Below are positions 4,763 through 62,077 of a stretch of 64,000 bases of DNA, one piece after another. The notes beneath the pieces were generated by a model. The model saw only the letters and a program-made list of their open reading frames with translations, was not told the DNA's origin and searched no databases. The translations under genes and the position numbers were made by a program. This stretch comes from an uncultured bacterium. GTDB taxonomy: Bacteria > Armatimonadota > Abditibacteriia > Abditibacteriales > Abditibacteriaceae. The stretch covers positions 1,240,001 to 1,304,000 of the forward strand of contig CAWJLW010000006.1 in assembly GCA_963843795.1 (NCBI GenBank), written 5' to 3'. Numbering within the stretch: position 1 is the stretch's first letter; every line of letters begins with the position of its first letter.

Positions 4763-7700
4763 ATGATCAAACCAAACTGCATTACAACATTCGCGTGCAC
4801 ATTATTAATCAGTGTGTTGCTGGGATTGAACAGCACAGCCCGAGCAGCGCTGTTGACTTGGACAGGCGACCAGTCGAGCGATGTGCTGAATGCGAATAAC
4901 TGGAGTCCAGTTCAAGTGCCGACCGAAGCGGACAGTCTCGTGATTAAAGGTAAAGCCGTCATCCTCAATTCCGACCTCACCGTCAGCGGGCTAGACATCT
5001 CGGGCGCAGGTGGCCTGCTTTCAGGTAGCGGCAATCTTTCTCTCACTTCGAGTTTCACAATCAGAGATGCTACAGTCAGTGGCACAGGTATTCTTACCCT
5101 CGGCTCAGGGTGTGTGAGTGATGTGCATGATCCCCATTTCGATCGCGTTGTCTACAACAATGGCCAAATGATTTGGAGCGGCAGCAATATTGACTTAAGC
5201 AAGAACTTTTACAATCAATTCGGCGCCCGTTTCAACATTCAAACAGATGGGCGCATTGAATCGAAGGTAAGCCCAATGCCGAGCTTTATCAATGCAGGGG
5301 AGTTCACCAAATCTGGTGCGAATGGCCAGACTGATGTGCGGGTTACCATGGAGAATAGTGGCGTTATTCGCTTCACTTCCGGTACCCTGAAGCTTCCTCC
5401 CGACTTTCGACAGACCGGTGGGCTTTTCGATATTACTGGCGATGTCAGCGGTTCAGCAGACTTCCCGTTGCTTATTTCTGGCGGTGTTTTAGTTGGAACA
5501 GGTAAGATTCAGGGCGATGTGATCAATGACGGTGGTGTGGTCGCAGCCGGGTATTCTCCTGGCAGCATTACTATCAACGGCAATTACACGCAAACTAGCA
5601 ACAGCACTTTGAACATGGAGATTGGTGGCACCAGTCCGGGCACCGGTTACGATCAGCTTGTGATCAACGGTTCGGCTTCTCTGGCTGGAACCATCAACCT
5701 TATCTCGTATAACAACTACCTCCCTCCCGTGGGCGCCAGTTTTAAGCTCATCACCTACTATTCGGTCGCTGGCTCCTTCAATACAATCAACGGTCTTACT
5801 CCCAGCAACGACCGCCGCTACAACGTCACTCAGGCACCCACCTATTTCCTGGCCAGTGTTGTGGCCTCCGAGGTGGCTTCGGCGGCTCCCGTAATCGGCC
5901 CCATTAGTGATCACAGCATCGATGAGGATACCGCGACGGGAGCTATCGCGTTCACGGTTAATGATAGCGACACCGATCCCAACACACTGACAGTTACCGC
6001 CACATCTTCGAATTCGGCTCTGGTGCCCGCTTCCGGTATCGTCTTAAGCGGCAGCGGCATCAGCCGCGTGATCTCCCTCATTCCCGCGGCCAACAAATAT
6101 GGTCGTGCGACCATCACGGTGCAGGCCAATGATGGCACCAGCACTTCAAGCGCTTCTTTTGTCTTGCAGGTTCTGCCCGTCAACGATGCGCCAGTGGCTG
6201 ATAACGACAGCGCAAGCACCAACGAAGATACGCTTCTGGATGTGACTGTCTTGGCCAACGACACCGATGTGGATGGTGATACCCTGCGCGTGGTGCGCGT
6301 GGCAACAGCGGCGAGCACCCATGGCAGCGTAAGCATCAACCCCGACGGCAAACTGCGTTTCATACCCGCAGCCAACTACAACGGCCCCAGCACATGGAGC
6401 TATACCATCAGCGATGGAGCCGTAGAAGCCACCGCTACGGTGACGGTGCAAGTACTTGCGGTGAACGATGCGCCCGTAGCGCACAGCCAAAGCATCCAAA
6501 CCGCAGCGGATACAGCGGTTTCTCTGGTGCTGAGTGCCAGTGACGTGGACGGCAACCCGCTTTCTTTCGAAATTGTCACTCCGCCATCTCATGGTAGCCT
6601 GTCGGGAACTGCTCCTAACCTGCGCTACACGCCGGCTGCCGGCTTCAGTGGAAGTGACTCGTTCTCCTTCCGCGCCAACGATGGCACCGCGCTCTCGGCT
6701 GTAGCCACCGTGACGCTGCAAGTCGCAGCCAAGCCCACACCAGTTCCGCCAACACCAGTTCCGCCGACACCAGTTCCGCCGACACCAGTTCCGCCGACAC
6801 CAGTTCCGCCGACACCGGAACCGCCTGTTACAGAACCGCCAACGCCAGTGCCGCCGACACCATCGCCGGATCACATCGCGCCCACCGCGAATTTCACAAC
6901 GCCGACGCACGGCGCGATTCTCAGCGCGCTGCCGCTTTTGCGTGGCCAGATGAGAGATAACGAAGGCGGTAGTGGTATAGCGGGCGTGCAAGTGGCAATT
7001 CAGCGCTTCGATGGCAAAACATGGTCGGGCAACAGTTGGGAAAGTAGCATTCAGCGCTTGCCGGGGCTAACCAGTGGCAGCAGCTGGGGCTTCAACAATG
7101 TGCCGCGCGCAGCGGATTTGGTCGATGGACCCTATCGCATGGCGGTTTGGCCTATTGACAACGCGGGCAACAAAGGCTTCACCCTGATTTCATTCCGCAT
7201 CGACGCCACAGCGCCACAATTGATGTGGGCCGCCCCGACGGCCAGCGCCAGCAACGCAGTCGGGCTACAATACGCGGTGCGCGCCAAAGATGCGGGCGGC
7301 ATGACCAGTGTAGAAATTTCGATTCAGCGCGGCAAAGATGGCGCTTATTGGAACGGGAGCGCTTGGCAGAGTGCGCCCGCAGCCCTTAGCACCGCTTTCG
7401 GTGGCGCTTATTGGGTGTTGCGCGCCGGTGCACCGCCGGCAATGGCGATGGACGCGGGCCGATACCAGTTAACGGCGACTGCTATCGATCACGCCGGTAA
7501 CAAAGCCATCGCGCGCCAACTCTTGACCTTGAGCGGCGCGGGCGGTTCGGCCACGACTTCCGCGGTGAGATTGTCGCGGGCAGCCGCGCGCGTTGCAGAC
7601 AACGCCATCGACCTATTCTTCACCGGGCCGCTGCAAATCGCCTCCTTGCGCGATGATGCAGAATTCAAAATACACATCAACGGAGCTGAAGTCGAAGTCG

Positions 7701-7864
7701 TGGAGAAATCGTATACAGCAGCGGGCAACCAGCTAACGCTGAGTTTGAGCGGTGGCGTCTTGGTGACAGGAGCGCGTGTCGAAGTGGTATGGGGCGGAAT
7801 CCGCGACGCCCAGGGTGCACCCTTAGCCTCGGGACAAGGAGCGTTTACGGCTGCTGCATCATAA
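4763..7864 (+). CDS. Large secreted/surface protein: autotransporter-like beta-strand region, tandem cadherin-like/Ig repeats, Pro-Thr linker, C-terminal Ig-like domains
   Basis: Signal peptide ending ARA-A; GYSPGSITINGNYTQ..LNMEIGG..YDQL; repeated VNDAPVA..EDT..DxDGD/N motifs; start chosen at MIKPN (4763). Confidence 0.75.
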   Translation: MIKPNCITTFACTLLISVLLGLNSTARAALLTWTGDQSSDVLNANNWSPVQVPTEADSLVIKGKAVILNSDLTVSGLDISGAGGLLSGSGNLSLTSSFTIRDATVSGTGILTLGSGCVSDVHDPHFDRVVYNNGQMIWSGSNIDLSKNFYNQFGARFNIQTDGRIESKVSPMPSFINAGEFTKSGANGQTDVRVTMENSGVIRFTSGTLKLPPDFRQTGGLFDITGDVSGSADFPLLISGGVLVGTGKIQGDVINDGGVVAAGYSPGSITINGNYTQTSNSTLNMEIGGTSPGTGYDQLVINGSASLAGTINLISYNNYLPPVGASFKLITYYSVAGSFNTINGLTPSNDRRYNVTQAPTYFLASVVASEVASAAPVIGPISDHSIDEDTATGAIAFTVNDSDTDPNTLTVTATSSNSALVPASGIVLSGSGISRVISLIPAANKYGRATITVQANDGTSTSSASFVLQVLPVNDAPVADNDSASTNEDTLLDVTVLANDTDVDGDTLRVVRVATAASTHGSVSINPDGKLRFIPAANYNGPSTWSYTISDGAVEATATVTVQVLAVNDAPVAHSQSIQTAADTAVSLVLSASDVDGNPLSFEIVTPPSHGSLSGTAPNLRYTPAAGFSGSDSFSFRANDGTALSAVATVTLQVAAKPTPVPPTPVPPTPVPPTPVPPTPVPPTPEPPVTEPPTPVPPTPSPDHIAPTANFTTPTHGAILSALPLLRGQMRDNEGGSGIAGVQVAIQRFDGKTWSGNSWESSIQRLPGLTSGSSWGFNNVPRAADLVDGPYRMAVWPIDNAGNKGFTLISFRIDATAPQLMWAAPTASASNAVGLQYAVRAKDAGGMTSVEISIQRGKDGAYWNGSAWQSAPAALSTAFGGAYWVLRAGAPPAMAMDAGRYQLTATAIDHAGNKAIARQLLTLSGAGGSATTSAVRLSRAAARVADNAIDLFFTGPLQIASLRDDAEFKIHINGAEVEVVEKSYTAAGNQLTLSLSGGVLVTGARVEVVWGGIRDAQGAPLASGQGAFTAAAS
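6734..6866 (+). repeat. 15-bp tandem repeat encoding a (PTPVP)n linker
   Basis: Repeated CCGACACCAGTTCCG-like units within the CDS. Confidence 0.9.
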
Positions 7865-7956
7865 TGGGTATGATTTGAAAGGGCGCCCTATCGAGTAAAT
7901 ACTCAATAAAATGGAGTGCGCCCCTGGCAGCTTATCTTGAACAGCCAGCATAGATA

Positions 7957-8418
7957 TGACCTGAATCTCAAGTTCATTCCATTTGAAATACGAGCTTCTG
8001 AGTTTGATTTTGGGCCCGGCTTACGGGCGATAAGTTGTTCAAGCTTGAGTGTGGCCTGAGCGTGTTGAAGTCGTAACGCCAGTTTGCGATGATGTCTCTG
8101 GCACTTTGCAAATCAGTGAACCATTCAAGGTTCAACATTCGTGCCCATAAGGCGCTTACGCATTTTGCCATTGAAAGATTCAATGACACCGTTCTGGGTT
8201 GGCTTATTTTTGCCATCACTCCCTTGAGGGAGGCGACATCAAGCCTCGCCAACAGTTTTTTAAGACGGGCGTTCTCCTGCTCCAGTTGGCGCAGACGCGT
8301 CGCCTCGTGCATCTGCCCAAGGGCACCTGATGCCGCCGAATTTGCTTTTTCTGCGGTCGGGTGTCCGTTGGGTGGATGCCTTACTCGCTCTTGGAAAATC
8401 CATTCCCAACAAGTTACA
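7957..8418 (-). mobile_element. Internally deleted IS3-family remnant
   Basis: OrfA-like EATRLRQLEQENARLKKLLA fused to OrfB C-terminus LNLEWFTDLQSARDIIANWRYDFNTLRPHSSL; catalytic core missing; ends approximate. Confidence 0.75.
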
Positions 8419-8440
8419 CTCACTCAAATTAAGTTCAGAA

Positions 8441-8965
8441 ATGAGAATGGCGACCAAAAAGAACCGAGAAATTATAGAAACTAAAAAGCCGCGCAAGACT
8501 AAAGCGGATGGAACATGGGGACAGTATCCCAAGAGCATTTCTCGCATCGAAACGCTCAAGCATAGCGCTTGGTATGTGCGGATTTTCTATCAGGGCGCGT
8601 ATGTACGCAAGACGTTTGCGGATACAATTTATGGCGGCAAAGAGAACGCTTTGACCGAAGCTGTGGCGTGGCGCGATGAGATGGAGAAAGCAATGGGCAA
8701 GCCACGCACGGATCGTTCGGTGCGCAAAAAGAACTTGGCCGAGGACGAATTTGCGGGCATTCATCGTCGCACTTTGAAAGCCAAAAATCGTGAGGGCAAA
8801 GAATATGAACGCGATGTGTATGAAATTACCTGGTCGCCCACGCCCGGCAAAGTGTCGCGCACAACGGTTTCAGTGACCAAGCATGGTGAAGAAAAAGCCT
8901 TGGAAATGGCGAAGGAAATTCGACGTGAAAAAGAACGCGAACTGTTTGGTAAAGAGATTACTTGA
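8441..8965 (+). CDS. Protein with two AP2-like DNA-binding domains
   Basis: Two repeats of the AP2 pattern: AWYVRIFYQG..RKTFAD..YGGKENALTEAVAWRDE and YEITWS..SRTTVSVTKHGEEKALEMAKEIR. Confidence 0.65.
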   Translation: MRMATKKNREIIETKKPRKTKADGTWGQYPKSISRIETLKHSAWYVRIFYQGAYVRKTFADTIYGGKENALTEAVAWRDEMEKAMGKPRTDRSVRKKNLAEDEFAGIHRRTLKAKNREGKEYERDVYEITWSPTPGKVSRTTVSVTKHGEEKALEMAKEIRREKERELFGKEIT

Positions 8966-8968
8966 ACA

Positions 8969-9006
8969 CACAAAAGGCGCTGCAAGTACTTGCAGCGCCT
9001 TTTGTG
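8969..9006. terminator. 38-bp perfect palindrome centred on TGCAAGTACTTGCA
   Basis: CACAAAAGGCGC-TGCAAGTACTTGCA-GCGCCTTTTGTG, just after the stop of the AP2-like gene. Confidence 0.7.
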
Positions 9007-9019
9007 CAAAGGAGGAGTG

Positions 9020-10597
9020 ATGAAATCTATGAGACAATGGTTAATCAGCGCAGTGGCGGTTTTAATGGCCAGCACCATCGGTTGCCATGCTCAGGACGCG
9101 CCCAAGAATGACGTGAACACGGCGCAATATGGCAATCGAGCGCGCATTGGAATTAACATCGCGGGCATCGCGGATTACAGTTCCGAACTGCCGTTTAATG
9201 ATATTTTTAAAACTTCGCGCGCCTGGATTAGCCAGCGCGAAGGTGCAGGTTGGGGGCAGGGGCCGAAACTGACTCTGGACAAAAACGGTTATGTAACGCA
9301 GTTACAAACCGATGCGCGCGCAGAAACGCCGATGTTGACCGATATTGGTGGCCACTTTCCGCAAGGTGAATATTTGCTGACTTATCAGGGCAAAGGCGAC
9401 ATTGACTTTAACAACGTGGCCGGAATTGTGTCGCGTGACGCGGGACGCATTGTATTTAAGCCCAAAGCCGAATCGGGCTTTTTCCTGCGCTTGAATAAGA
9501 TCGATGCTCAGAATCCAATTCGTGAAATTCGCATTCTTTTGCCCGGACAGCACGAAGGCAGAGCGGTTTTTAATCCGACATTTTTGCAACGCATTCAACC
9601 TTTTGGCGCGATTCGTTTTATGGATTGGGGCGCGACCAACGGTAGTCCTTTGGAAAAATGGGCGGATCGTCCACAATTATCGGATGCGAGTTGGAGCGTG
9701 GGCAAAGGTGTGCCAATTGAAAAGATGGTGGAATTGGCCAACGCACAAAAAAGCGGCGCTTGGTTTACGATTCCACATCGCGCCGATGAGGATTTCGTAC
9801 GCCGCATGGCGCAAATGGTGAAAGACACGCTTGATCCAACTTTAAAAATTTATATTGAATATTCCAACGAGGTATGGAACGGTCAGTTTGAACAGGCGCG
9901 TTATGCCTCAGAGCAGGGCAAAAAGTTGGGGTTATCGGACAACGATTTCCAGTCTCAACTGCGCTTTTATTCTCAGCGGTCGGTCGAAATTTATCGCATT
10001 TGGAAGGAAGTTTTCGGCCAGCAGAAAAACCGTTTGGTGTGCGTGATGGGCAGCCAATCGGTCAATCCTTGGGTGAGCGAACAGGTTTTAGGCTGGAAAG
10101 ATGCCTTTAAAGAAGTCGATGCGCTGGCTATCGCGCCGTATTTCGGTGGTCAATTCGGCGATCCTAAACGGCAAACTGAAGTCGCATCGTGGAGCGTCGA
10201 TCAGTTGATGAACAAGTTGGACGACGAAGTGAACGGACAAAATCGGCAAAACATCGCGGACATCGCCGCAGTAGCGAAGAAATTTCGCGTGAAAATGTTC
10301 GCTTACGAAGGCGGTCAGCATTTGGTCGGGCATGGTGGCGCGGAGAATAACCAGAAATTGCAAGATTTGTTCGTCGCGGCCAATCGCGATGCGCGCATGG
10401 AAACGTTATATCGCCAACATTTGACGAATTGGTTTGACCAAGGCGGCGATTTGTATATGGTGTTTTCCAGCGTCGGCGGGCCGAGCAAATGGGGCAGTTG
10501 GGGCGTTTTGGAATATCAAGATCAGCCGATAGAAGACGCACCGAAATATCGCGCCCTTGTTGATTTTGTGAAGAATGCGAAATTGCCTGCTTCGTGA
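9020..10597 (+). CDS. Secreted putative glycoside hydrolase ('cellulose-binding protein'-like family)
   Basis: GGAGGA RBS, signal peptide, motifs RFMDW, YIEYSNEVWN and YEGGQH. Confidence 0.65.
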   Translation: MKSMRQWLISAVAVLMASTIGCHAQDAPKNDVNTAQYGNRARIGINIAGIADYSSELPFNDIFKTSRAWISQREGAGWGQGPKLTLDKNGYVTQLQTDARAETPMLTDIGGHFPQGEYLLTYQGKGDIDFNNVAGIVSRDAGRIVFKPKAESGFFLRLNKIDAQNPIREIRILLPGQHEGRAVFNPTFLQRIQPFGAIRFMDWGATNGSPLEKWADRPQLSDASWSVGKGVPIEKMVELANAQKSGAWFTIPHRADEDFVRRMAQMVKDTLDPTLKIYIEYSNEVWNGQFEQARYASEQGKKLGLSDNDFQSQLRFYSQRSVEIYRIWKEVFGQQKNRLVCVMGSQSVNPWVSEQVLGWKDAFKEVDALAIAPYFGGQFGDPKRQTEVASWSVDQLMNKLDDEVNGQNRQNIADIAAVAKKFRVKMFAYEGGQHLVGHGGAENNQKLQDLFVAANRDARMETLYRQHLTNWFDQGGDLYMVFSSVGGPSKWGSWGVLEYQDQPIEDAPKYRALVDFVKNAKLPAS

Positions 10598-10600
10598 GGT

Positions 10601-12316
10601 TTAAAACAAGAAATAACGCTGCGCCATCGGCAATTCACTCGCTGGTTCGCAAGTCAAAAGCTCGCCATCGGCGCGCACTTCATAGGTTTCGGGATTGACT
10701 TCAATCTTCGGCGTCGCGTCGTTGCGAATCATATCTTTCTTTGCAACGGCACGGCAATCTTTGACAGCCACTATCATCTTCTGCAGTTGCAAACGTTCCG
10801 GCAATCCGTCTTCAATGGCCTGCTGTGATAAAAACGTAGCGCAAGTACTTGCGGGCGCGCGACCGAAGGCTCCGAACATCGGGCGGCTCCACACTGGCTG
10901 CGGTGTGGGAATTGAAGCGTTGGCGTCGCCCATTTGACTATACGAAATCGCGCCGCCTTTGATAATTAAATCCGGCTTGACGCCGAAATACGCGGGCGAC
11001 CAGATCACTAAATCGGCCAATTTGCCGCTTTCAATCGAGCCGACCAGATGCGAAATGCCATGCGTGCGCGCCGGATTAATCGTATATTTGGCCAAGTAAC
11101 GCTTGATGCGTTCGTTATCGCCATCGAGCGTTTCTTCGCTTAAAGCGCCGCGTTGTTGCTTCATTTTGTGCGCGGTTTGCCAGGTGCGCGTGATAACTTC
11201 ACCGATGCGGCCCATCGCTTGGGAATCGCTGCTCATCATAGAAAGCGCGCCCAAATCGTGCAGAATATCTTCCGCCGCGATGGTTTCACCGCGAATGCGC
11301 GAATCAGCAAATGCCACGTCTTCGGGAATATCGGGGTCGAGATGATGGCACACCATTAACATATCCAAATGTTCTTCCAAGGTGTTCATCGTGTAAGGCC
11401 GCGTCGGGTTGGTCGAAGAAGGCAGCACATTGGGATAACCCGCGACTTCTAAAATGTCGGGCGCGTGGCCACCGCCCGCGCCTTCGGTATGGAAGGTGTG
11501 AATGGTGCGCCCATCAATCGCGCGCAGCGTGTCCTGCACGAAACCGGCTTCATTCAGCGTATCGGTGTGAATGGCGACCTGCACATCCATTTCATCCGCA
11601 ACGCGCAAGCAAGTATCAATCGCTTTGGGCGTGGTGCCCCAATCTTCGTGCAATTTCAGTCCGATGACTCCTGCAAGTACTTGCTCGCGCAGCGGCGCTT
11701 CGCTGCTGGCGTTGCCCTTGCCGAAAAAGCCCAAGTTCATCGCAAACGCTTCGGCACTTTCCAACATGCGTGCGATGTGCCAAGCGCCCGGCGTGCAAGT
11801 CGTGGCGAGTGTGCCATGCGCCGGGCCGGTGCCGCCGCCGAGCATCGTGGTGATGCCGGACGTGGCCGCGACTTCGATTTGTTGCGGACAGATGAAATGA
11901 ATGTGTGAATCTATCGCGCCTGGCGTGACGATTTTGCCTTCGCCCGCGATGACTTCCGTACCCGCGCCGACAATTAAATTCGGGTCAACACCATCTTGAA
12001 TATCGGGATTGCCCGCCTTGCCGATGCCCACAATGCGCCCATCGCGCAGGCCAATATCGGCTTTCACGATGCCCCAATGGTCAATAATCAGCGCGTTGGT
12101 AATGACGGTATCGAGCGTGCCATCATTGCGCCCTAAACGCGAATTTTGGCCCATGCCGTCGCGGATGACTTTGCCACCGCCGAATTTAATTTCTTCGCCG
12201 TAAACGGTGTGGTCTTTCTCTACGACTGCCCATAAATCGGTGTCGGCCAGTCGAACGCGGTCGCCGGTCGTCGGCCCGAACATCGCGGCATAGGCCGCGC
12301 GCGAAATGCGGCTCAT
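10601..12316 (-). CDS. ureC: Urease subunit alpha
   Basis: [52 protein letters not shown] and SSDSQAMGR. Confidence 0.98.
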
Positions 12317-12678
12317 AATTGCTCCCACTTGTTCAAACGCTCGCGCGCTTCGCTGCAAGTACTTGCACCATCGCTGAGGCCATTCAAACCGAAAACTTTT
12401 TTCGCACCGCCGATTTCAACCAGCGTGATCATTTTGGTTTCGCCCGGTTCAAAACGCACCGCAGTTCCCGCCGCGATATCGAGACGCATATTGAAAGCGG
12501 CTTCGCGGTCGAACTGAAGGGCGCGATTGGTTTCGTAAAAGCAGAAATGCGAGCCGACTTGAATCGGACGGTCGCCGCTATTAGCAACTTCTATCTCGAT
12601 TGTCTGACGGTTCGCATTGAGTTCGAGAGTTTCGTCGGGAGTTTGAATTTCGCCGGGAGTGAACGGAGAATTTGTCAT
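12313..12678 (-). CDS. ureB: Urease subunit beta
   Basis: [16 protein letters not shown] and [16 protein letters not shown]; overlaps the ureC start by 4 bp. Confidence 0.95.
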
Positions 12679-12679
12679 T

Positions 12680-13546: not shown

Positions 13547-13558
13547 GAAACGGGAAGC

Positions 13559-53704: not shown

Positions 53705-53937
53705 AACTGCTGTGATACGCAGTGCAAGTACTTGCGGCTCGCTTCGTAATCCATAATGCAATTATGCACCCGTTGCTGCATAAGCCACCATCCAAAGGTT
53801 CTGACTTTGAACGTTGTTCGGTAGAGCGCGGATCTTGTGATTTTGTTGGGATAAATGCAATTATGCGGTATGGCAAGTACTTGCCCTGCTGGCAAATTTT
53901 GACCCGCACGCTGTGCCGCGTCACACTGTACCCAGAC

Positions 53938-55764
53938 ATGAAATTCTGCCGCTTCTGCGCCACACAAAACAGTGCTCAGGCCACGCATTGCGTCGCCTGC
54001 GGAGCGTCGTTGGATGCGCCACAGGCCGCTGCTCCAAAACCTGTCGTGCCGCCCACGCCTTTGTCGCAACCTGCGCCTTTGTCGCAACCTGCGCCTTTGT
54101 CGCAACCTGCGCCTTTGTCGCAACCTGCGCCTTTGTCGCAACCTGCGCCTTTGTCGCAACCTGCGCCGTATCAACCGCCGAATTATTACCGGCAAGCGCC
54201 GGCCACGCCACCACCGTCCGCGACTTTGCCTCCGTTGCCCTATGCACCATCCGTGAGTCCGGCAGTTCATCAAGCGAATCACGAGGCTGCGCACGCAGGC
54301 ATGATCACTTTGGCTCAAGTGCTGCGCGAGCGCAAAAGGCTGTCGGCACGCGATGCGGCGGTTTATCTTAGCGATATCAGCACGGCGCTGCACGCTTATC
54401 ATCAGACCGGACGCGCTCACGGCGATATTCGTCTCGATTCGATTCGCCTCAGCACGCAAGGTGTGCATTTGTCTTCAGGCACTGGGGCGGCGCTGACGGC
54501 TTCGGCACGCGCTGCCGATTACCGCGCGGTTCTGGCTCTTCTCACGCCGCTATGCAATGCGCAGGGCTGGCAGTTGAACACGCTCGACCGCGAATTTCCG
54601 CCCGCTTTGGCGGCTTTTGCACGCGCGATGCTCACGTCGCCGCTCGAAATCGAAAGCCATGCTCACACATTACGCATTGCCGCGCACAACCCCGATGACA
54701 CCGCGTTCACGCTGTCGCACGGCTCGGTTGCCAGGCCGATGGCTTCGATTCTGGCTGGCTCGCTGCCCCAAAACCCCAATTTCCAACCCCCCGAAAAATC
54801 GCCCGAACCCGCGCCCAAATCGCCGGTGAAACGCGCGATTTCGCAGCGCGCTTCGCAGCTTGATGTCGAGAAAACCAAGCTCAGCGCGGTGCGGCGTTTG
54901 AATCGTGGCGCATCGTGTGTGCGCGTGGCTTGGACAGGCGATGAACGCGAACTGTGGTGTGGTGGCGAAAACGGCCTGATTTCGATCTGGAGCGCAGCGA
55001 CCGGCGCGCAGGGCGTGCGCATGGAAACGCATTTTCGCGGTGCTCAAGTCACCAGTCTCGCCTTCGATACCGAAGCGGGTGTGGCGGTCGGCGGCTACGA
55101 AGATGGTCGAGTGCGTTTCTGGGAGCCGCGCGCCAATCGGATGCGCCACGTTATCGATGCGCATGAAGGCCGGGTTTCCAGTCTGGATTTCGGTCTCACT
55201 CGCGCTGGTCGTCCGATTGTAGCCAGCGGTGGCAGCGACGGACAGTTGCGCGCGTGGGACGTGGCCAAAGGCACGCGCAGCGGCTATCTCGAAGCCGAAA
55301 TGGTCAATATCCGCGCGGTCGCGCTGGCGAGTGACGGCGTTCATGTCGCCCTTGGCGGCGATAGTGGCGCGCTGGAACTTTGGAACTGGCCTGCTGCGCT
55401 GCCGATCTGGTCGAGTCACGAACACAGTTTCTGGCTGACCGCGCTACGTTTCTCGCCCGACAACCGCATTCTGGCCAGCGGTGCTTACGACCGCACGATT
55501 CGTTTGTGGTCGGTCGGCGATGGCCGCTGCGGTCGCGAAATCACCTGCCACGACGCGTTCATCACGAGCTTGGATTTCTCGCCCTGCGGCACGCGTTTGT
55601 TATCGAGCGGCGCCGATGGCGCAGTGTGGCTGCACGATTGGCGCGCCCACAAATCGCGGCGCCTACTGGTCGAAGACAATGCGTGCGATGTCGCGTGGTG
55701 CGGAGATGGCGCGCACTTCGCCGTCGCGGGCGCCGACGGGCTTTCGTTATGGCGCTTGGACTAA
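53938..55764 (+). CDS. Zn-ribbon / degenerate kinase C-lobe / WD40-repeat protein
   Basis: CRFC..CVAC; HGDIRLDSI kinase-like remnant; WD40 repeats such as ASGGSDGQLRAWD and ASGAYDRTIRLWS. Confidence 0.8.
   Translation: MKFCRFCATQNSAQATHCVACGASLDAPQAAAPKPVVPPTPLSQPAPLSQPAPLSQPAPLSQPAPLSQPAPLSQPAPYQPPNYYRQAPATPPPSATLPPLPYAPSVSPAVHQANHEAAHAGMITLAQVLRERKRLSARDAAVYLSDISTALHAYHQTGRAHGDIRLDSIRLSTQGVHLSSGTGAALTASARAADYRAVLALLTPLCNAQGWQLNTLDREFPPALAAFARAMLTSPLEIESHAHTLRIAAHNPDDTAFTLSHGSVARPMASILAGSLPQNPNFQPPEKSPEPAPKSPVKRAISQRASQLDVEKTKLSAVRRLNRGASCVRVAWTGDERELWCGGENGLISIWSAATGAQGVRMETHFRGAQVTSLAFDTEAGVAVGGYEDGRVRFWEPRANRMRHVIDAHEGRVSSLDFGLTRAGRPIVASGGSDGQLRAWDVAKGTRSGYLEAEMVNIRAVALASDGVHVALGGDSGALELWNWPAALPIWSSHEHSFWLTALRFSPDNRILASGAYDRTIRLWSVGDGRCGREITCHDAFITSLDFSPCGTRLLSSGADGAVWLHDWRAHKSRRLLVEDNACDVAWCGDGAHFAVAGADGLSLWRLD
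54057..54167 (+). repeat. Six perfect 18-bp tandem repeats GCCTTTGTCGCAACCTGC encoding (PLSQPA)6
   Basis: Read directly from the sequence. Confidence 0.95.
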
Positions 55765-56396
55765 TTGGATTGCGATTTTGTCCAAATGCGTCGCGCCCAC
55801 AACCACAATCGTGGCAAAAACACGCCTTCGCGCAACTGTGCACTTGCCCAGCCGAAAACAATTCCGACCGCTGCGCCGCTCAAAACTTGATACGCGTAAT
55901 GATCGTGCGTGGCGATTCTGGCCCAACCGATAAAAACGGCGAGCGCGAACCATAACGCGGAAAGTTTTGGTAGCGTGCGCCAAACCAACCACGAGATTGC
56001 GAACGACGAAACCATATGACCGCTCGGGAAACCGCCCAAATCGGGTAGTGAAGTGCCCGGCGGACGCGAAAACGGAATTGTATATTGCAGCAGCGGAACC
56101 ACGCTGTAAGTAAACGCAATCGCATCGAACCAACTCCACGCATCCGGCGCGCGTTGCGGCGCGAAAATTCCCCAGCGCGCGGCCAGCCAGCGCGACGATT
56201 GAGGCCACAAAACGATCAAGCTGCTGCCCAGAAACCACGCATAAGCGACTTTCCAGAATAGCTCGCCGCCCGCCAATTCTATTGGCGACCAGCGCGGCAG
56301 TGCGCACACCATCACTAAAAGTAATGCTGCGCATATCGGCTGAAATTTTTGCCATCGCGAAAGGTTTGTGGACGCAGATTCTGGATTGATTTTCAT
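55761..56396 (-). CDS. PAP2-family membrane phosphatase
   Basis: RP..GFPSGH..ARIATHDHY..VLSG motifs. Confidence 0.85.
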   Translation of the reverse strand: MKINPESASTNLSRWQKFQPICAALLLVMVCALPRWSPIELAGGELFWKVAYAWFLGSSLIVLWPQSSRWLAARWGIFAPQRAPDAWSWFDAIAFTYSVVPLLQYTIPFSRPPGTSLPDLGGFPSGHMVSSFAISWLVWRTLPKLSALWFALAVFIGWARIATHDHYAYQVLSGAAVGIVFGWASAQLREGVFLPRLWLWARRIWTKSQSN

Positions 56397-57178
56397 GATT
56401 GTGGCCCTGCAAGTACTTGCAGCGTGCAATGCGATTGCAAACGTGCGCGCGAAGCACCGCGAAAGCGTCCGCTGTGCGGCAGAACATCGCGATAATCGCG
56501 CCCATGTGCTACCGCGACATTGATTTCACCGATTTCGCGCCCGTGCGTCGGGTCGAAAGCGCGCCATTTTTCATTCACCAAAACTTCCACCCACGCGTGC
56601 ATTTGCCCTTCCTGAGCGCCGTAACCCGCGACGTAACGCGCCGCAAAACCAGCTGCACGGCATAAGGCAATCATCAAGTGAGCGTAATCCTGACACACGC
56701 CCGCGCCTATTTTCAAGGCTTGCGAAGCCGTCGTATCGGCACTAGTCGCGCCAGTTTCGTAGCGCAAACTTTGGTGCGCCAATTGATTTAGCTTCTGAAC
56801 CTTTTCTAAATCGCAGCAAGTGCTTGCAGACGCCATCTGGCAAATTTCCGGCGTGCGCTCGCACAACGCCGAAGGCAAACGCCACGCACCGAGATTATTT
56901 TCTACTTTTAGAGCCGAATTTTCTGCGCGATCTTCAACCGTGAAATCGCAGAAAAATCGCAACGATTTCAGCGCGCGATGTTGTAGTTGCAACACGCGAT
57001 TGCCACCTTCATCAATCCAATCGCGCGCATCGTCGGGCGCGGGTTCGCAGTTCCAATCGTACGAAATGAGCTTTTGTGCGCCGCGCAATTGCGGCGGCAA
57101 AATGCGCAGTTCGCGCACGCAATCGCGCGCCGTTTGATTGTAGCGCACGCAAAGAGTTTGATGAACGCGACGCATCAT
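56393..57178 (-). CDS. Transglutaminase-like family protein
   Basis: GVCQDYAH, ARYVAGY, HAWVEV, FDPT and GRDYRDV. Confidence 0.9.
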   Translation of the reverse strand: MMRRVHQTLCVRYNQTARDCVRELRILPPQLRGAQKLISYDWNCEPAPDDARDWIDEGGNRVLQLQHRALKSLRFFCDFTVEDRAENSALKVENNLGAWRLPSALCERTPEICQMASASTCCDLEKVQKLNQLAHQSLRYETGATSADTTASQALKIGAGVCQDYAHLMIALCRAAGFAARYVAGYGAQEGQMHAWVEVLVNEKWRAFDPTHGREIGEINVAVAHGRDYRDVLPHSGRFRGASRARLQSHCTLQVLAGPQS

Positions 57179-57188
57179 GAGAAGAGAA

Positions 57189-57218
57189 AAGCGTCCTGCA
57201 AGTACTTGCAGGACGCTT
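57189..57218. terminator. 30-bp perfect palindrome centred on TGCAAGTACTTGCA downstream of gltX
   Basis: AAGCGTCC-core-GGACGCTT. Confidence 0.65.
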
Positions 57219-57240
57219 GGGTTTGCACATTCGCAAAAAT

Positions 57241-58707
57241 TCAAGCGCGCAATTGTTTCGCTGTGCGCTCTAAACGCGACAAAACGCGTTCGCGGCCCAG
57301 CACATTCAACAAATCGAAAACCGATGGCCCGACGCCGCGACCCGAAACCGCCAAGCGCGCCGGATGAATGAGCGCGGCGGGCTTGACGCCCAAACTTTCG
57401 GCTTCCTCGCGCAACGCCGCTTCAATCGCATCGTGATTCCAATCGTCGAGTTTGGCTAAACGGTCGTGCAAATTTTGCAAATTCGCGCCGGCTTCGGGCG
57501 AAAAATGCTTGGCGGCCGCTTTTTCTTCGGTCGGAAATTCGTCGCTGAAAAAGCTCTGCGTCGCGGCTTCGATATCGGAAAGATGAAAAATGCGGTCGCG
57601 GCTCAAGTCAATCGCCGTGCGCTCATAATCGCTGATTTCCTGCGAAACCAGAGGCAAATGCGGGCGCGCGAGTTCGATGAATTGGTCGATGGGCATTTGC
57701 TTCAAAAACTGCAAATTCATCCACTGCAATTTTTCGATGTCGAAAATCGCACCGGCTTTATTGACGCCTTCAAGAGAAAACTTTTCGACCAATTCTTCGC
57801 GCGAGAAAATTTCCTGCGTTTCGCCGCCGCCCGGATTCCAGCCCAAAAGCGCGAGATAGGAAAGCATCGCGTCGGGATAAATGCCGCGTTCGCGTAAGTC
57901 GAGCAGGTTGGAATCTTGGTTGCGCTTCGACAATTTCTTGCGGTCTGGCCCCAGCAAAAACGGCAGATGCGCGAAAACCGGTTCGTCAGCGCCCAGCGCA
58001 CGGTAAATTTGAATCTGGCGCGGCGTGTTATTCAAACCATCTTCACCACGAATGACGTGCGAAATTTGCATCAGCCAATCATCGACGACGCAGGCGAAAT
58101 TATAAGTCGGGCCGCCATCGCTTTTCAGCAAAACGAAGTCGTCCAATTCGGTGTTTTTGACCGAAATTTTGCCGTAAACCGCATCGTCCCATGTGGTTTC
58201 GCCTTCGTCGGATACGCGCAAACGCAGCACGAAAGGCCGGCCTTCGGCTTCGTACCGTTCACGTTGTTCCGAACTTAAATCGCGGTGCGCGCCGGTGTAA
58301 CGCGGCGGCAATTTACGCGCTTGCTGATCGGCACGCATCGCGGCCAATTCTTCGGCGGTCTCATAAGCGCGATAAGCGTGGCCGTTGGCTTCGAGCTGCA
58401 CAGCGTGTTGACGATACAAATGTGTGCGCTCTGATTGACGATAAGGCCCAAATTCGGCAGCGTTGTTTGGACCTTCGTCGGCGTCAAGTCCGAGCCATTC
58501 CATCGCTTCGTAAATGATGGCTTCGTAAGCGTCGTCGTTGCGCGCTTGGTCGGTGTCTTCGATGCGCAAAACGAACGCGCCGTTGTGATGGCGCGCGAAA
58601 AGATAATTGAACAGCGCGGTGCGTGCGGTGCCGACGTGAAAAAATCCGGTCGGACTGGGCGCCATGCGCACGCGCACAGGGCGAGAAGTGTTGTGATTTG
58701 ATGTCAT
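57241..58707 (-). CDS. gltX: Glutamate--tRNA ligase
   Basis: RMAPSPTGFFHVG, LRIEDTD, GPYRQSER, HVIRGED and KLSKR, plus anticodon-binding domain. Confidence 0.96.
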   Translation of the reverse strand: MTSNHNTSRPVRVRMAPSPTGFFHVGTARTALFNYLFARHHNGAFVLRIEDTDQARNDDAYEAIIYEAMEWLGLDADEGPNNAAEFGPYRQSERTHLYRQHAVQLEANGHAYRAYETAEELAAMRADQQARKLPPRYTGAHRDLSSEQRERYEAEGRPFVLRLRVSDEGETTWDDAVYGKISVKNTELDDFVLLKSDGGPTYNFACVVDDWLMQISHVIRGEDGLNNTPRQIQIYRALGADEPVFAHLPFLLGPDRKKLSKRNQDSNLLDLRERGIYPDAMLSYLALLGWNPGGGETQEIFSREELVEKFSLEGVNKAGAIFDIEKLQWMNLQFLKQMPIDQFIELARPHLPLVSQEISDYERTAIDLSRDRIFHLSDIEAATQSFFSDEFPTEEKAAAKHFSPEAGANLQNLHDRLAKLDDWNHDAIEAALREEAESLGVKPAALIHPARLAVSGRGVGPSVFDLLNVLGRERVLSRLERTAKQLRA

Positions 58708-58790
58708 TGTGCGCCAGTTTATCAGGCGTGGGCGATAATTTTACGCTGCAAGTACTTGCAGCGTGTTTTTTGCTTTTCAATTAACATTTG

Positions 58791-59558
58791 TCATCCACCA
58801 TAATCGCGATAGCTGCGTCCGGTGGGGTAGCCCATGCGTTGCGCGACGCGTTCTTTCACTTGGCGGTTGCGGAACAAAAATACCAATACAATTCCTGCAA
58901 GCGCGCCGCCCAGATGTGCCCAATAGGCGATGCCACCACCACCGGTTTCGTCGGTGTAGGCAATCGAAGCCACGCTGCTCAAGCCTTGCACAATAATCCA
59001 GCCGCCGATCACTAAAAATGCAGGCAGGTGAAAAATGCCGAACCAGCCGAACAAAACGCGCACGTAGCGCGTGGGGTAAAGCATCAGATAGGCGCCCAAA
59101 ACGCCCGCAATCGCCCCCGATGCGCCCAGTGAAGGAATCAGCGAATTCGGGCCGGAAGCGATGTGCGCGGCGGTCGCGACCAATCCGCATAGCAGGTAGA
59201 AAATCAGGAATTTGACGTGGCCCATCGCGTCTTCGATGTTGTCGCCGAAAATCCACAGATACAGCATATTGCCGCCCAAATGCGCCCAGCCGCCGTGCAT
59301 AAACATCGCGGTCAGAATCGTCAGATAAATCGGCTGCGGTCCTGGCGCTTGCGGAATCGCGCCGCCCGCCACTTTCACGCCTTGCGTAATATCGGTGTTG
59401 CGCATAATTTCTTGCGGAATGACCGAAAATCCGTAAGTGAACGCGTCGTTGGGCAGTTGCAGAAGCACGAAAACCGCGATGTTAATCGCGATGAGTGCAT
59501 AAGTCACATACGGCGTGATAACGCGTTGCGTGTTGTCATCACCAATTGGTAAAAGCAT
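58791..59558 (-). CDS. Rhomboid family intramembrane serine protease
   Basis: MFMHGGWAHLGGNMLYLWIFGDNIED, GASGA and AHLGG. Confidence 0.93.
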   Translation of the reverse strand: MLLPIGDDNTQRVITPYVTYALIAINIAVFVLLQLPNDAFTYGFSVIPQEIMRNTDITQGVKVAGGAIPQAPGPQPIYLTILTAMFMHGGWAHLGGNMLYLWIFGDNIEDAMGHVKFLIFYLLCGLVATAAHIASGPNSLIPSLGASGAIAGVLGAYLMLYPTRYVRVLFGWFGIFHLPAFLVIGGWIIVQGLSSVASIAYTDETGGGGIAYWAHLGGALAGIVLVFLFRNRQVKERVAQRMGYPTGRSYRDYGG

Positions 59559-59740
59559 AGCTAAAATTTCCTCGTGAAAGCGTCTGGCAAGTACTTGCGG
59601 AGCGCGCCATTACAACAGGAATCGTGCCAATATGGGAACGCTATGAAGCTGGAAGTTTTAGGAATTAAAATTCTGGCATGAATGCCAACGAATTCGTTGT
59701 TTGAAAGCTCAGGATACGACAAACACAAAACTTGAAACAC

Positions 59741-60877: not shown

Positions 60878-61381
60878 TTAATATTGCCAATTGTTATGCT
60901 CGGCATAAGCCAAAATTCCCAGCAAGCATTCGGGACTGGGACGACCACGCGGGCCGGACAAAATCCACGAACAACTCACTTTGCCCTCGGCATCGATTAA
61001 AACCACCGAAGGCGCGGTGTAATTTTTATAATCGTCACGCTTCATATCGCGCGAATTGACACCATAAACGCCGTATTTCTCGCCAACTTCGCCATCATCA
61101 TCAATCAAAAGTGGCGCGCGTAAACGAAAATTTTCGTGAAATTTAGCGTGCTCTTCGCGTCCGCCGTTCACGATAAACGCCAGTTCGCAGTTCATTTTTT
61201 TGAACAGATGGTTGAAATTGCTCCAGTAGGGAAATTCGCCCTGTGTCGTCGGACAATACTCGCCGCGACAAAAATGCAGAATTACCATTTTGCCCCTATG
61301 GTCGCTCAATTTCCAGCCATCACCATTGGTGTCAATAAGCAAAAAATCGGGTGCGTCTTCTCCATTGATTAAAACCGCCAT
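60878..61381 (-). CDS. AhpC/TSA (peroxiredoxin/redoxin) family protein
   Basis: APDFLLIDTNG..LSDHRGK..RGEYCPTT..LIDAEGKV. Confidence 0.8.
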   Translation of the reverse strand: MAVLINGEDAPDFLLIDTNGDGWKLSDHRGKMVILHFCRGEYCPTTQGEFPYWSNFNHLFKKMNCELAFIVNGGREEHAKFHENFRLRAPLLIDDDGEVGEKYGVYGVNSRDMKRDDYKNYTAPSVVLIDAEGKVSCSWILSGPRGRPSPECLLGILAYAEHNNWQY

Positions 61382-61435
61382 AATCTTTCTCCTCGTTTTG
61401 GCCCAGATGAGCCGTTTTTGACTACACTTGAATTG

Positions 61436-62077
61436 ATGAATAACCCCACAAATTCCTCCGCAAGTACTTGCCCGCCATCTTGCCGTGTCGCGCTCAAAGA
61501 ATGGTCGGCGACCTGTCGCGCTTTGGACGTTGGACGTCAGATCATACTGCTGCGCAAAGGTGGCATTTTAGACGCCGATGGCGTTTTTGAACTTGAACAA
61601 CCGCAATTCTGGCTCTTACCAACGTGGTTTCATCAAGACACCGCGCTATTGCAAAATTCTGACCGCCATTTCTTAGACAGTCCGCAAAACCAAGATAAAA
61701 CGCTGCATTTGCAATGGCTCGCGCAGGTCGCGCGCGTGTGGGCGATTGATGATGCCGATGATGAAAGAGCTCTGCAAGTACTTGCCAGTTTGCCGCACAT
61801 CTGGAGCGAGCGTTATTTGCAGACGCGCGTCCGTTACAAGCCCGATCATCCGTTACTATGTGTAGCGCTGCGTTTATGGAAAGTGCCGCAGGCGCACGTT
61901 GTGGAATCGCATCCAAGTTATTTTGGCTGTCGGAGTTGGATCGAGTTGGACGAAGATTTGCCGCTCAACGACCTGCGCCCCGCGATGGAAGACGAGGAAT
62001 TTGCGATTCAAGTCGGGCAGTTAGATGCGGCTCTGCAAGCTGTGGCGCGCGGCACAAAATCCCAAATGCTGGCTTGA
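61436..62077 (+). CDS. DUF1802-like protein
   Basis: ALKEW..GRQIILLRKGGI..FWLLPTWFHQ..YFGCRSWIEL. Confidence 0.8.
   Translation: MNNPTNSSASTCPPSCRVALKEWSATCRALDVGRQIILLRKGGILDADGVFELEQPQFWLLPTWFHQDTALLQNSDRHFLDSPQNQDKTLHLQWLAQVARVWAIDDADDERALQVLASLPHIWSERYLQTRVRYKPDHPLLCVALRLWKVPQAHVVESHPSYFGCRSWIELDEDLPLNDLRPAMEDEEFAIQVGQLDAALQAVARGTKSQMLA

Follow-up and report, generated by a model that had tools for sequence, protein, structure and literature searches.

A single DNA tag, the 12-bp perfect palindrome GCAAGTACTTGC, has replaced amino acids in genes throughout the genome of a soil-type member of the Abditibacteriaceae, mostly without change in protein length. The palindrome occurs 38 times in the window (the whole stretch of DNA analysed, 64,000 nt) and as 2,563 exact copies in the genome, against 0.004 and 0.25 copies expected from base composition, which excludes chance. 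Its abundance, strict consensus, even spacing and scarcity in IS-rich islands, together with substitution at most aligned coding sites, dialects around an AGTAC core in relatives and the presence of transformation genes, lead us to read it, with a probability of roughly 55%, as a species-specific tag of the DUS/USS or HIP1 kind by which DNA from kin is preferentially taken up or recombined during natural transformation. DNA uptake would then be the drive behind accumulation of the motif. Such a tag would be maintained at a density of roughly one copy in 1-2 kb and read as a 12-mer by an as yet putative protein; site-bearing fragments would re-enter the chromosome more often, so that point mutations towards the motif would spread and tolerant codons would be overwritten, mainly via base substitution. 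As a second site near a first would add little, intergenic room would be filled first, with the copies there doubling as predicted stems of terminators, and coding copies would arise for the most part in places without an intergenic one nearby. With lesser weight, we suggest that the family's orphan DPPY adenine methylase possibly methylates the GTAC core, in which case the tag would depend on methylation as HIP1 does. To our knowledge, self-DNA uptake tags are so far known from just a few unrelated bacterial groups.

Copies between genes and their spacing

The density of GCAAGTACTTGC is 0.6 per kb here, with 0.7-1.2 per kb for the motifs of relatives, and its consensus is strict, 2,563 perfect copies standing against 506 with one mismatch (337 of them transitions). 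By our own gene calls, 25 of the 38 window copies and 1,799 of the 2,563 genome copies (70%) are intergenic, a count in which up to 159 non-coding calls are possibly 5' coding extensions; the frequency is 2.84 per kb in intergenic and 0.21 per kb in coding DNA, a 14-fold difference. This predominance was overlooked by the initial annotation, which had dwelt on the coding minority. Many intergenic copies lie within 30-50-bp perfect palindromes, at the tips of predicted terminator-like hairpins. In the window, a 52-bp perfect palindrome downstream of gyrB and a convergent GGDEF gene (27884..27935, copy at 27904) is predicted to form such a hairpin, and one of 50 bp spans 62796..62845 (copy at 62815). 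Two hairpin copies, at 21810 (arms 10 bp) and 21852 (arms 16 bp), lie between convergent glnA and gyrA (21800..21879), and another at 31677 (31665..31700; arms 12 bp, with an A-run and a T-run) also lies between convergent genes; further hairpin copies are found at 8982 (8969..9006; 13-bp perfect arms), 24520 (24506..24545; arms 14 bp) and 35033 (35018..35059; arms 15 bp). The other intergenic copies, in the range 4379..59598, are at 4379, 4503, 13493, 15074, 16265, 17240, 26670, 37789, 37840, 42117, 45820, 49469, 53724, 53873, 57198, 58748 and 59587. Genome-wide, arms of at least 6 bp occur in 549 of the 1,799 intergenic copies, at a median of 27.5 bp past a stop codon and with A- and T-runs, and these long-armed copies are enriched between convergent genes. 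This would suit a motif that is primarily an RNA terminator stem-loop, with coding copies as spill-over, but we consider this very improbable: about 70% of the copies between genes and 98% of those within them have no long arms, such arms are rare in samples of the related genomes G009 and G012, where coding copies make up at least half, and the use of rare codons in genes and the filling of gaps described below would be left unexplained.

Copies of GCAAGTACTTGC are spaced more evenly than random (CV 0.89, against 1.20 in a null that preserves the genic/intergenic split), with 338 gaps of less than 400 bp against 780 in the null; in the G009 sample the CV is 0.65. Coding copies fill gaps in this even spacing, a feature that had been missed. 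Interior coding sites number 0.303, 0.201 and 0.107 per kb in genes with 0, 1 and 2 site-carrying flanks, a fall that exceeds all 2,000 length-stratified permutations, and three control hexamers showed no comparable fall with flank occupancy. The same series in G009 is 0.72, 0.50 and 0.27. Gap filling is weaker in genes whose two spacers each measure 40 bp or more (0.182, 0.176, 0.100) and the trend is absent in genes longer than 2.4 kb; we count this weakening in subsets against an uptake tag. Even spacing, similarly counted because it fits a role in chromosome structure too, and gap filling speak for a rather unlikely alternative, in which GCAAGTACTTGC is bound by a protein that organises the nucleoid or maintains the chromosome and requires a landmark every 1-2 kb, and host selection writes copies into genes. 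Resident mobile DNA would likewise acquire host sites, and a structural role has been proposed for HIP1 from its periodicity, as described in PMC5861425. The E. coli SlmA-binding sites, as they appear in PMC3020112, are also 12-bp palindromes with an AGTACT centre. Unlike SlmA sites, which avoid the terminus, GCAAGTACTTGC has thousands of copies and no terminus gap, its density remaining flat (54-66 per 100 kb) where the GC skew of the main contig switches, at about 1.5-1.6 Mb. TetR_N gave no match in the window's own genome (labelled G000 in our comparisons) or in G006, so no SlmA-type protein was found in either, nor any TetR-family protein in G000. A landmark role is also at odds with sister taxa that switch between palindromic and polar spellings, and with 21 of the order's 28 genomes having no such motif in the sequence searched. 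The uptake reading, for its part, draws on the scarcity of GCAAGTACTTGC in IS-rich islands; two 26-kb stretches are free of the motif and hold ORFs that appear to be transposase-like and restriction-modification-like.

Copies within genes

All 12 full in-gene copies listed in the initial annotation are exact GCAAGTACTTGC 12-mers, although the first begins at 6448 and not at 6447, where the range had been started, and their peptides read as claimed in host ORFs that Pfam allowed us to name. The QVLA frame is used at 6448..6459 (TVQVLAV) in a Big_9/cadherin surface protein (4814-7864, + strand), at 11673..11684 (EQVLAG) in the urease alpha subunit UreC, directly before GLKLHEDWG, at 12750..12761 (AQVLAG) in a NicO/UreH-like protein, at 43356..43367 (PQVLAR) in a Gfo/Idh/MocA oxidoreductase (GFO_IDH_MocA), at 44831..44842 (LQVLAE) in a PfkB kinase, at 50721..50732 (PQVLAA) in the linker and 51954..51965 (VQVLAG) in the C-terminal tail of a Ser/Thr kinase (Pkinase; 49534-51987, + strand), at 56409..56420 (LQVLAG) in the final residues of a transglutaminase-like protein, and at 61774..61785 (LQVLAS) in a DUF1802 protein. 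The ASTC frame is used at 10841..10852 (PASTCAT) in UreC, at 12355..12366 (GASTCSE) close to the C-terminus of the urease beta subunit UreB and, likely, at 61460..61471 (ASTCP) at the DUF1802 N-terminus, given an ATG start at 61436. As the DUF1802 Pfam match already starts upstream of the later start given by our own gene caller, the earlier coding assignment is likely right. One coding copy had escaped notice, at 14283..14294 (MLQVLAA, QVLA frame), where an ABC ATPase (13559-14299, - strand) begins. The partial copies GCAAGTACTTCA (50075..50086, LQVLH) and GCAAGTACTTGA (52383..52394, VQVLE) both lie within Pkinase matches, as had been claimed, the latter in a second kinase domain.

Genome-wide, the 757 coding copies are read as QVLA in 501 cases, as xKYL in 142 and as ASTC in 114. 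The third frame, xKYL, had been reported as unseen, which is true of the window (0 of 13 coding copies) but not of the genome, and 21 of the 94 sites in genes with aligned orthologues use it too. No tetrapeptides of the proteome are more over-represented than QVLA and ASTC, at about 15- to 33-fold over composition. Codon choice is clearly abnormal: 510 of 574 QVLA peptides are encoded by CAA-GTA-CTT-GCN against 0.4% expected, and 114 of 132 ASTC peptides by the exact 12-mer against 0.2% expected, and the codons that the motif imposes on QVLA are rare ones. These peptides are missing in sister taxa, each proteome being enriched in the peptides of its own dialect.

Neither UreC site shows a gap against its covering orthologues (10 of 10 and 9 of 9). 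At 10841, T-S-[L/I/V]-[T/S]-F in 8 of 9 orthologues corresponds to T-C-A-T-F here, and at 11673 orthologues read EQ[I/V][R/Q/E/V]AG where this protein has EQVLAG. The initial annotation had proposed substitution rather than insertion, and 74 of 94 orthologue-covered sites are indeed gap-free; the other 20 have a gap within 3 residues of the site, 2.5 times the 8.1 expected from flank-matched controls, so substitution is dominant yet not the whole story. This genome is longer at 16 of the 20, by 1-6 residues, and some copies thus accompany short length gains. The excess of gapped sites is without explanation and is counted against an uptake tag. AGTAC is present at 10 of the 94 orthologous places, at genus-to-family distance; for a comparison of site conservation, no genome that is both close and shares the dialect was found. 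Because QVLA and ASTC depart from normal codon usage and the alignments do not show the motifs to be generally inserted residues, the core claim that the motif is written into proteins stands, while the insertion-free picture, the absence of the third frame and the emphasis on coding copies do not.

The sites at which this genome is longer, and the 30-50-bp palindromes around many intergenic copies, would also be seen if copies were a mobile palindromic element of REP/RAYT, Rickettsia RPE or NTS/Ssn type inserted in genes and spacers. Short palindromes at hairpin tips, intergenic and near stop codons, are features of RPE and RAYT. NTS/Ssn elements, as described in PMC11893778, share this likeness. 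For most coding sites, such insertion is largely refuted already by the gap-free alignments; a 4-residue gain occurs at just 3 of the 94 sites, and coding sites show target duplications no more often than expected. Unlike these elements, the copies show no clustering, mostly leave protein length unchanged and have no constant arms, the left 8-mers of 499 long arms being of 264 kinds, which argues against derivation from one element. No fitting transposase or small nuclease was found in G000, which has a single weak Y1_Tnp match (E 4e-7) and GIY-YIG frames of 672 and 450 aa, neither of the small Ssn size. Little probability is therefore left to a mobile element as the source of the motif.

Dialects, competence genes and the orphan methylase

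Among the 28 genomes of the order, 7 carry motifs around an AGTAC core, in five dialects. Besides GCAAGTACTTGC these are CAAAGTACTTTG in G001, TCGAGTACTCGA common to G009, G015 and G019, a loose CGAGTACTCG in G012, and the polar AGTACGGTCGA in G006, with 1,260 forward and 1,307 reverse copies; 80 kb of this genome with 60 copies contain 19 inverted pairs. Metagenome loci carry at least three dialects with AGTAC: AAAAGTACTTTT, ATGAGTACTCAT and the polar AAAAGTACGCC. Polar dialects were found only in G006 and the locus L285, both of which form inverted pairs. The relatives' own spellings around a shared core point to a likely species-specific tag for the uptake of kin DNA. The palindromic form of most dialects is an observation that we count on the other side. 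Three short, likely mobile loci have 16, 15 and 10 RAGTAC sites in 2-3 kb, where fewer than one is expected, and on each locus these sites belong to several dialects, side by side.

All 28 genomes have ComEC; of 5 genomes, all have ComEA and a PilB-type domain and 4 have DprA, and there is a type IV pilus operon (PilB/T/C/D). Competence genes and pilus operon also occur in motif-less genomes. In this assembly PilC and a PilX/PilY-like gene are frameshifted, as are 6 of 82 other orthologues. The ComP_DUS family matched 0 of 5 genomes, control genomes being equally silent, and we found neither a candidate receptor nor a gene separating motif-bearing from motif-less genomes. The missing receptor, the competence genes of motif-less genomes and the PilC frameshift were all counted against an uptake tag.

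An orphan beta-class DPPY adenine methylase is found in 7 of 7 motif genomes, on the mixed-dialect loci and also in 14 motif-less genomes, the last again counted against an uptake tag. Its closest solved enzymes (E 1e-36 to 1e-30) do not fix its target, which we infer only from GTAC depletion to be possibly GTAC. GTAC is depleted outside the motif, with a pooled O/E near methylase homologues of 0.40 against 0.78 in controls; CTAG is down as much there (0.43 against 0.74), and GTAC is low in G002 (0.25) and G013 (0.19) despite no methylase match. CGATCG is depleted in this genome as well (O/E 0.2). Since GTAC is kept in all dialects, is depleted elsewhere and is accompanied by this methylase, the motif might have arisen incidentally from methylation-directed repair at GTAC, as a mutational ratchet, or be the strand signal of such repair, with no role in uptake. 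Elhai reportedly proposed a mutational ratchet for HIP1. Cyanobacterial HIP variants track methylases, according to PMC4390886. We regard a repair origin as quite unlikely, as the methylase occurs without the motif in the 14 genomes, a four-base mark leaves strict species-specific flanks and polar dialects unexplained, and a neutral ratchet predicts neither gap filling nor changes at conserved UreC positions; in addition, MutH had no match in G000, G009 or G006, and MethyltransfD12 none in G000.

Relation to known sequence tags

As an uptake tag, GCAAGTACTTGC would be comparable to the Neisseriaceae DUS, GCCGTCTGAA with eight dialects, and the Pasteurellaceae USS, AAGTGCGGT and ACAAGCGGT, as described in PMC2817400 and PMC3630211. 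With the DUS/USS of these accounts the motifs share about 0.6-1 copy per kb, a length of 10-12 bp, substitution origin, spacing more even than random, under-representation in coding DNA, enrichment of the peptides they encode, a bias in reading frame, dialects built on a conserved core and foreign ('peregrine') dialects in some DNA. Further likenesses are the use of both strands, evident from the G006 counts, scarcity in IS-rich islands, inverted pairs at predicted terminators (here in G006 and L285) and competence machinery in the genome. They differ in their phylum, Armatimonadota, in a core that is possibly methylated, and in mostly palindromic dialects that switch to polar between sister taxa, whereas known DUS/USS as presented in PMC2817400 are not palindromic. 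Peptide enrichment is also higher, at about 15- to 33-fold for tetrapeptides against about 2-fold for the DUS/USS tripeptides of PMC2817400 and PMC3630211, although the measures differ.

HIP1 (GCGATCGC) increases transformation in a way that depends on methylation, as reported in 10.1101/2024.09.10.611283. Like HIP1 as portrayed in PMC4390886, PMC5861425 and PMC13756078, GCAAGTACTTGC is a palindrome with several hundred to more than 1,000 copies per Mb, in and between genes; it shares with the HIP1 of PMC4390886 a four-base core, an orphan methylase in the genome and variant spellings in relatives. Spacing is regular in both, here in the sense of evenness by CV and in PMC5861425 in the strict sense of periodicity. 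GCAAGTACTTGC is neither GCGATCGC nor a close variant, having 12 bp rather than 8 and a GTAC rather than a GATC core, and it further differs from HIP1 in its 14-fold intergenic bias, hairpin extension, polar dialects and patchy occurrence within one family.

A bolder and, taken as a whole, only tentative possibility is that the Abditibacteriaceae evolved an independent DNA-uptake language uniting the HIP1 and DUS kinds. The GTAC core would be marked by a family-specific adenine methylase, as in HIP1, and the species-specific flanks read by a putative receptor, as in DUS, in at least eight dialects, with switches from palindromic to polar or back among sister species. Broad-host-range mobile elements would be polyglot, with their own methylase copy and every host's dialect at up to five sites per kb, and if this is true such polyglot sets would let them enter or persist in several hosts. 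The polar dialect of G006, AAGTACGGT, is one base off the USS core that PMC2817400 prints for H. influenzae.

Coding copies of the motif

The palindrome GCAAGTACTTGC occurs as 38 exact copies in the window, where base composition predicts 0.004, and as 2,563 non-overlapping copies in the assembly of the genome that contains the window (G000; 4.30 Mb, 11 contigs). One-mismatch variants number 506 in this genome, 337 of them transitions; these are raw counts, as Markov expectations for such variants were biased by masking and were set aside. The 12 full in-gene copies listed in the initial annotation are all present in the window with the peptides assigned to them, the labels of their host reading frames are consistent with Pfam names, and both partial copies sit within kinase domains; an additional coding copy lies at 14283. 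Genome-wide, 757 copies are coding (in 608 genes), 1,799 are intergenic and 7 fall on a boundary, giving a density of 2.84 per kb in intergenic DNA versus 0.21 per kb in genes. These figures depend on dicodon-model gene calls (3,372 genes, 85% coding) whose starts may be late, such that up to 159 copies called non-coding may lie in 5' coding extensions. None of the 48 tRNA and tmRNA genes has a site. Two 26-kb stretches of G000 are without the motif and contain reading frames that we take to be transposase-like and restriction-modification-like. The 40.6-kb contig C3 of G000, with what is presumably a phage-tail-like gene cluster, has just 3 copies and as such was likely acquired recently.

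The coding copies are read as QVLA in 501 cases, as xKYLx in 142 and as ASTC in 114, and the reported absence of the third frame (xKYL) therefore holds for the coding copies of the window but not for the genome as a whole. No tetrapeptides in G000 are more over-represented than QVLA (574 occurrences vs 38 expected) and ASTC (132 vs 4); KYLQ and CKYL come next. The suggestion that the palindrome is written into proteins at the DNA level was borne out by codon choice, with QVLA spelled CAA-GTA-CTT-GCN in 510 of 574 cases against 0.4% expected from codon usage and ASTC encoded by the exact 12-mer in 114 of 132 against 0.2%, and also by sister taxa: QVLA reaches 47 per 100,000 residues in G000, compared with 0.8 and 5 in the relatives G007 and G009, each sampled at about 115,000 residues. 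The same G009 sample is rich in peptides of its own, RVLE, IEYS and SSTR, at 39.5, 22.8 and 42 per 100,000 residues (3.1, 0.4 and 1.7 in G000).

It had also been proposed that sites accumulate by point substitution rather than insertion, with no apparent length change in UreC. The two UreC sites indeed align without gaps to all covering orthologues (10 of 10 and 9 of 9), and at the second site G000 has T-C-A-T-F where eight of nine orthologues have T-S-[L/I/V]-[T/S]-F, the ninth having a broken frame; a DNA-level signal here overrides conserved urease residues. A wider comparison with 356 fetched loci (3.08 Mb) provided an orthologue at 50-97% identity for 94 of the 757 coding sites, and 74 of these had no gap within 3 residues. 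The remaining 20 exceed the 8.1 gapped sites expected from control windows matched for flank identity (13 of 57 sites were gapped in an earlier, smaller pass); G000 is the longer in 16 and the shorter in 4, and only 3 are 4-residue gains. Sites agree with the orthologue less than controls do, both in residue identity (0.36 vs 0.63) and in matching bases (5.4 vs 7.9 of 12). As the alignments are mostly gap-free and target duplications show no excess at G000 coding sites, substitution at tolerant places is the rule, although the excess of short length gains departs from the original claim and may stem from loops or from insertion as a minor route. Comparison of G000 with itself gave 16 alignments, all at 67-76% identity, and no near-duplicate pair of which one member has a site and the other lacks it. 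One DNA sequencing run, possibly of the source sample (0.35 of words), gave short pieces with no usable variation at sites, and no RNA run was among those listed.

Insertion of a mobile element would find some favour in these length gains, and intergenic sites do show apparent 4- and 6-bp target duplications, which we provisionally put down to self-complementary GC arms. However, the arms of the hairpin copies vary (264 distinct left 8-mers among 499), and they are therefore not one mobile element. With most sites gap-free and arms diverse, insertion was rejected as the main explanation and is very improbable. Separately, the + strand of the window has an Rfam 5_ureB_sRNA match at 11869-12167, in antisense to the 5' portion of the gene for urease alpha; coding-sequence likeness may be all that it reflects.

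Intergenic hairpins and spacing

Perfect symmetry extends by at least 6 bp in 549 of 1,799 intergenic copies vs 15 of 757 coding copies. The long-arm intergenic copies lie a median 27.5 bp past a stop codon with A- and T-runs, and favour convergent genes; five copies in the window are predicted to form long hairpins with the core at the tip (z -6.8 to -11.4). Such hairpin copies are predicted to act as terminators. An origin in termination alone, the reading on which these copies bear most directly, was rejected as the main explanation of the motif and we regard it as highly improbable. Coding copies with arms of at least 5 bp number 30 vs about 5 expected; the count takes in gene ends as well as weak gene calls, and was set aside. 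Perfect palindromes of at least 50 bp at 27884-27935 and 62796-62845 extend beyond the T-tract, more than a terminator needs, and the longest arms in G000 reach 33 bp. Hairpins can be perfected by template switching, and these long palindromes may have been perfected in this way.

Spacing on the main contig of G000 is more even than in a null that keeps the genic/intergenic split (CV 0.89 vs 1.20), with 338 gaps below 400 bp vs 780. Coding copies avoid intergenic ones, with a dose-response to those nearby: in genes of 0.3-2.4 kb, interior sites occur at 0.303, 0.201 and 0.107 per kb with 0, 1 and 2 motif-bearing flanks, a fall beyond all 2,000 permutations, and three control hexamers gave no comparable fall with site-bearing flanks. 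A G009 sample behaves alike (0.72, 0.50 and 0.27). With both spacers 40 bp or longer the trend is weaker (0.182, 0.176 and 0.100), and for genes above 2.4 kb it is absent. Motif density does not change across the GC-skew switch of G000, and for this reason, and because TetR_N has no match in this genome, a SlmA-type site was rejected as the main explanation. That the motif is some landmark of chromosome structure is possible but unlikely.

Dialects in relatives and a methylase

The organisms named for homologues of the methylase discussed below put G000 within the Abditibacteriaceae or next to them. The exact 12-mer is abundant in G000 only (0-3 copies in 40 relatives), and related genomes have dialects of their own. 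Among 28 genomes of the order, RAGTACTY is found 2,695-4,371 times in five further genomes and 0-117 times in the other 22; it is spelled CAAAGTACTTTG in G001, TCGAGTACTCGA in G009, G015 and G019, and loosely CGAGTACTCG in G012. The dialect of G006 is polar, that is, non-palindromic (AGTACGGTCG; 1,260 forward and 1,307 reverse copies), nearly absent elsewhere and often paired in inverted orientation (80 kb with 60 copies has 19 such pairs), so that the common core is AGTAC and not AGTACT; the lack of strand bias in G006 led us to reject a polar signal of the Chi/KOPS type as the main explanation. Metagenome loci found via this methylase had motifs by eye in 17 of 80 cases, and yielded the spellings AAAAGTACTTTT in 7 loci and ATGAGTACTCAT in 2 short ones, as well as another polar dialect, AAAAGTACGCC, in locus L285. 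In a GyrB tree of 27 rows (G014 missing) the six palindromic genomes do not form one clade, requiring at least 2 changes, and G006 is sister to the TCGA group with support 100/100. In 64 kb of G017 we saw no motif specific to that genome. Among 251 genomes of the phylum, enrichment was confined to the family, as judged with a pattern that would miss polar dialects. A scan of genome contigs with a 16-mer gave at least 36 loci in unrelated taxa, with one site each.

We note that the G006 form (loci L166-L168 and L273) is a single base away from the H. influenzae USS core as given in PMC2817400, which is probably convergence or chance. The GyrB frames of G007, G016, G010 and G013 (L208, L209, L210 and L212) are 1,020-1,178 aa long and their match breaks at residue 453, which suggests an inserted domain, e.g. 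an intein. On a contig of G016 (C1; L078) a unit at the 12-mer level is repeated 107 times in 7.9 kb, perhaps as a tandem array or a CRISPR-like one.

G000 has one N6_N4 methylase, a beta-class orphan with a DPPY motif and no conserved neighbour (contig C6, 2517365-2518135; L099). All 7 motif-bearing genomes have it, as do 14 of the 21 that lack the motif, and homologues at 56-65% identity lie on many other metagenome contigs; the copy in G022 has stops. Near these homologues GTAC is depleted, with a pooled observed/expected ratio (O/E) of 0.40 in 63 loci without the motif vs 0.78 in 36 unrelated control loci, as is CTAG (0.43 vs 0.74). In five genomes lacking a methylase match, GTAC O/E is 0.62-0.90 in three and 0.19-0.25 in two. 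From these sequence comparisons GTAC is a plausible target of the methylase; homology does not give the target, as searches of plasmids, phages and PDB returned only 28-36% matches or generic names. A ratchet of methylation and repair would fit the presence of the methylase in all motif-bearing genomes, but the gene is also found in 14 genomes without the motif, and we judge this origin distinctly unlikely. Neither MethyltransfD12 nor MutH has a match in G000. Samples of G005, G008, G014, G007 and G022 have GTAC O/E of 0-0.13 (G022 contigs totalling 49 kb lack it altogether) and also strongly avoid CTAG and several six-base palindromes.

A possible transformation tag and mixed-dialect DNA

Two proteobacterial families are known to use sequence-specific uptake tags (DUS and USS), and the link between HIP1 and transformation is recent. 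The pattern described here is real, and we interpret the motif as a transformation tag with a probability of roughly 0.55. In the simplest account, such a tag would be read at about one copy per 1-2-kb DNA fragment; sites would arise via point change, would occupy intergenic room first, doubling there as terminator stems, and would enter proteins where spacing demands and the protein tolerates it. The motif of G000 agrees point by point with the features of DUS/USS listed in PMC2817400 and PMC3630211, palindromy excepted, and the polar dialects of relatives remove much of that difference. With HIP1 it has palindromy and a methylase link in common, according to PMC4390886 and PMC5861425, and HIP1 when methylated aids transformation, as reported in 10.1101/2024.09.10.611283 and PMC13756078. 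We class the motif neither as DUS nor as HIP1, because its symmetry sets it apart from DUS and its sequence from HIP1, and its role in uptake is one that we infer. If the methylase does mark GTAC, the DUS and HIP1 kinds would be linked. Searches of the main texts of open-licence PMC and bioRxiv articles turned up no mention of this motif or of uptake sequences in the lineage, string matches being on unrelated topics by title; subscription papers or supplementary motif-survey tables could hold it.

All 28 genomes encode ComEC. Of five genomes compared, each has ComEA and a PilB-type domain and four have DprA, and the type IV pilus operon is conserved (in G000 at contig C6, 385799-402501, L271, with four pilin-like genes); competence gene and pilus operon content did not differ between the motif-bearing and motif-less genomes compared. 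Frameshifts, possibly assembly errors, interrupt PilC and a 1,270-aa PilX/PilY-like gene in G000; 6 of 82 other orthologues are likewise frameshifted. The ComP_DUS family gave no match in five genomes, control genomes being equally silent. No strongly basic candidate was seen among 42 pilin-like proteins of G000 found by pattern, and this genome gave no convincing Y1 transposase and no small GIY-YIG nuclease.

With presence and absence of the motif inside one genus, many dialects and a switch from palindrome to polar form between sister taxa, the Abditibacteriaceae make the origin, respelling and protein entry of such motifs testable by comparison. Three short metagenome loci, L292, L316 and L326, have 16, 15 and 10 RAGTAC sites vs less than 1 expected, at up to 5 per kb, with spellings of G000, G001, G012 and G006 and AAAA side by side. 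In all three the methylase gene adjoins a YdjM fusion, and in L292 and L316 an outer-membrane-efflux-type protein lies upstream. The long YdjM fusion is patchy across the order and present in three copies in G022, which adjoin resolvase, DUF3854, DnaB and Toprim genes and have zero GTAC; this distribution and these neighbours make it likely that the methylase/YdjM module is mobile. Foreign spellings also occur in contigs of the motif-less G017 (L509 and L510) and in the small G000 contigs C2, C5 and C9, all chosen for having matches and as such not a random sample. The three loci could also come from one species whose consensus is loose; mixed-dialect DNA is likely mobile, and would offer a route to tracing gene flow among uncultured hosts. 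Scans of viral sequences gave 2 distant loci with the methylase, 6 loci of one site each with the 16-mer, and 107 stretches with the polar 14-mer, several copies being found on two contigs only. The 58-kb viral contig IMGVR_UViG_3300034031_000030 (L432 and L433) bears the G006 polar form at about 1 per kb, a dialect that points to the host group of the virus.
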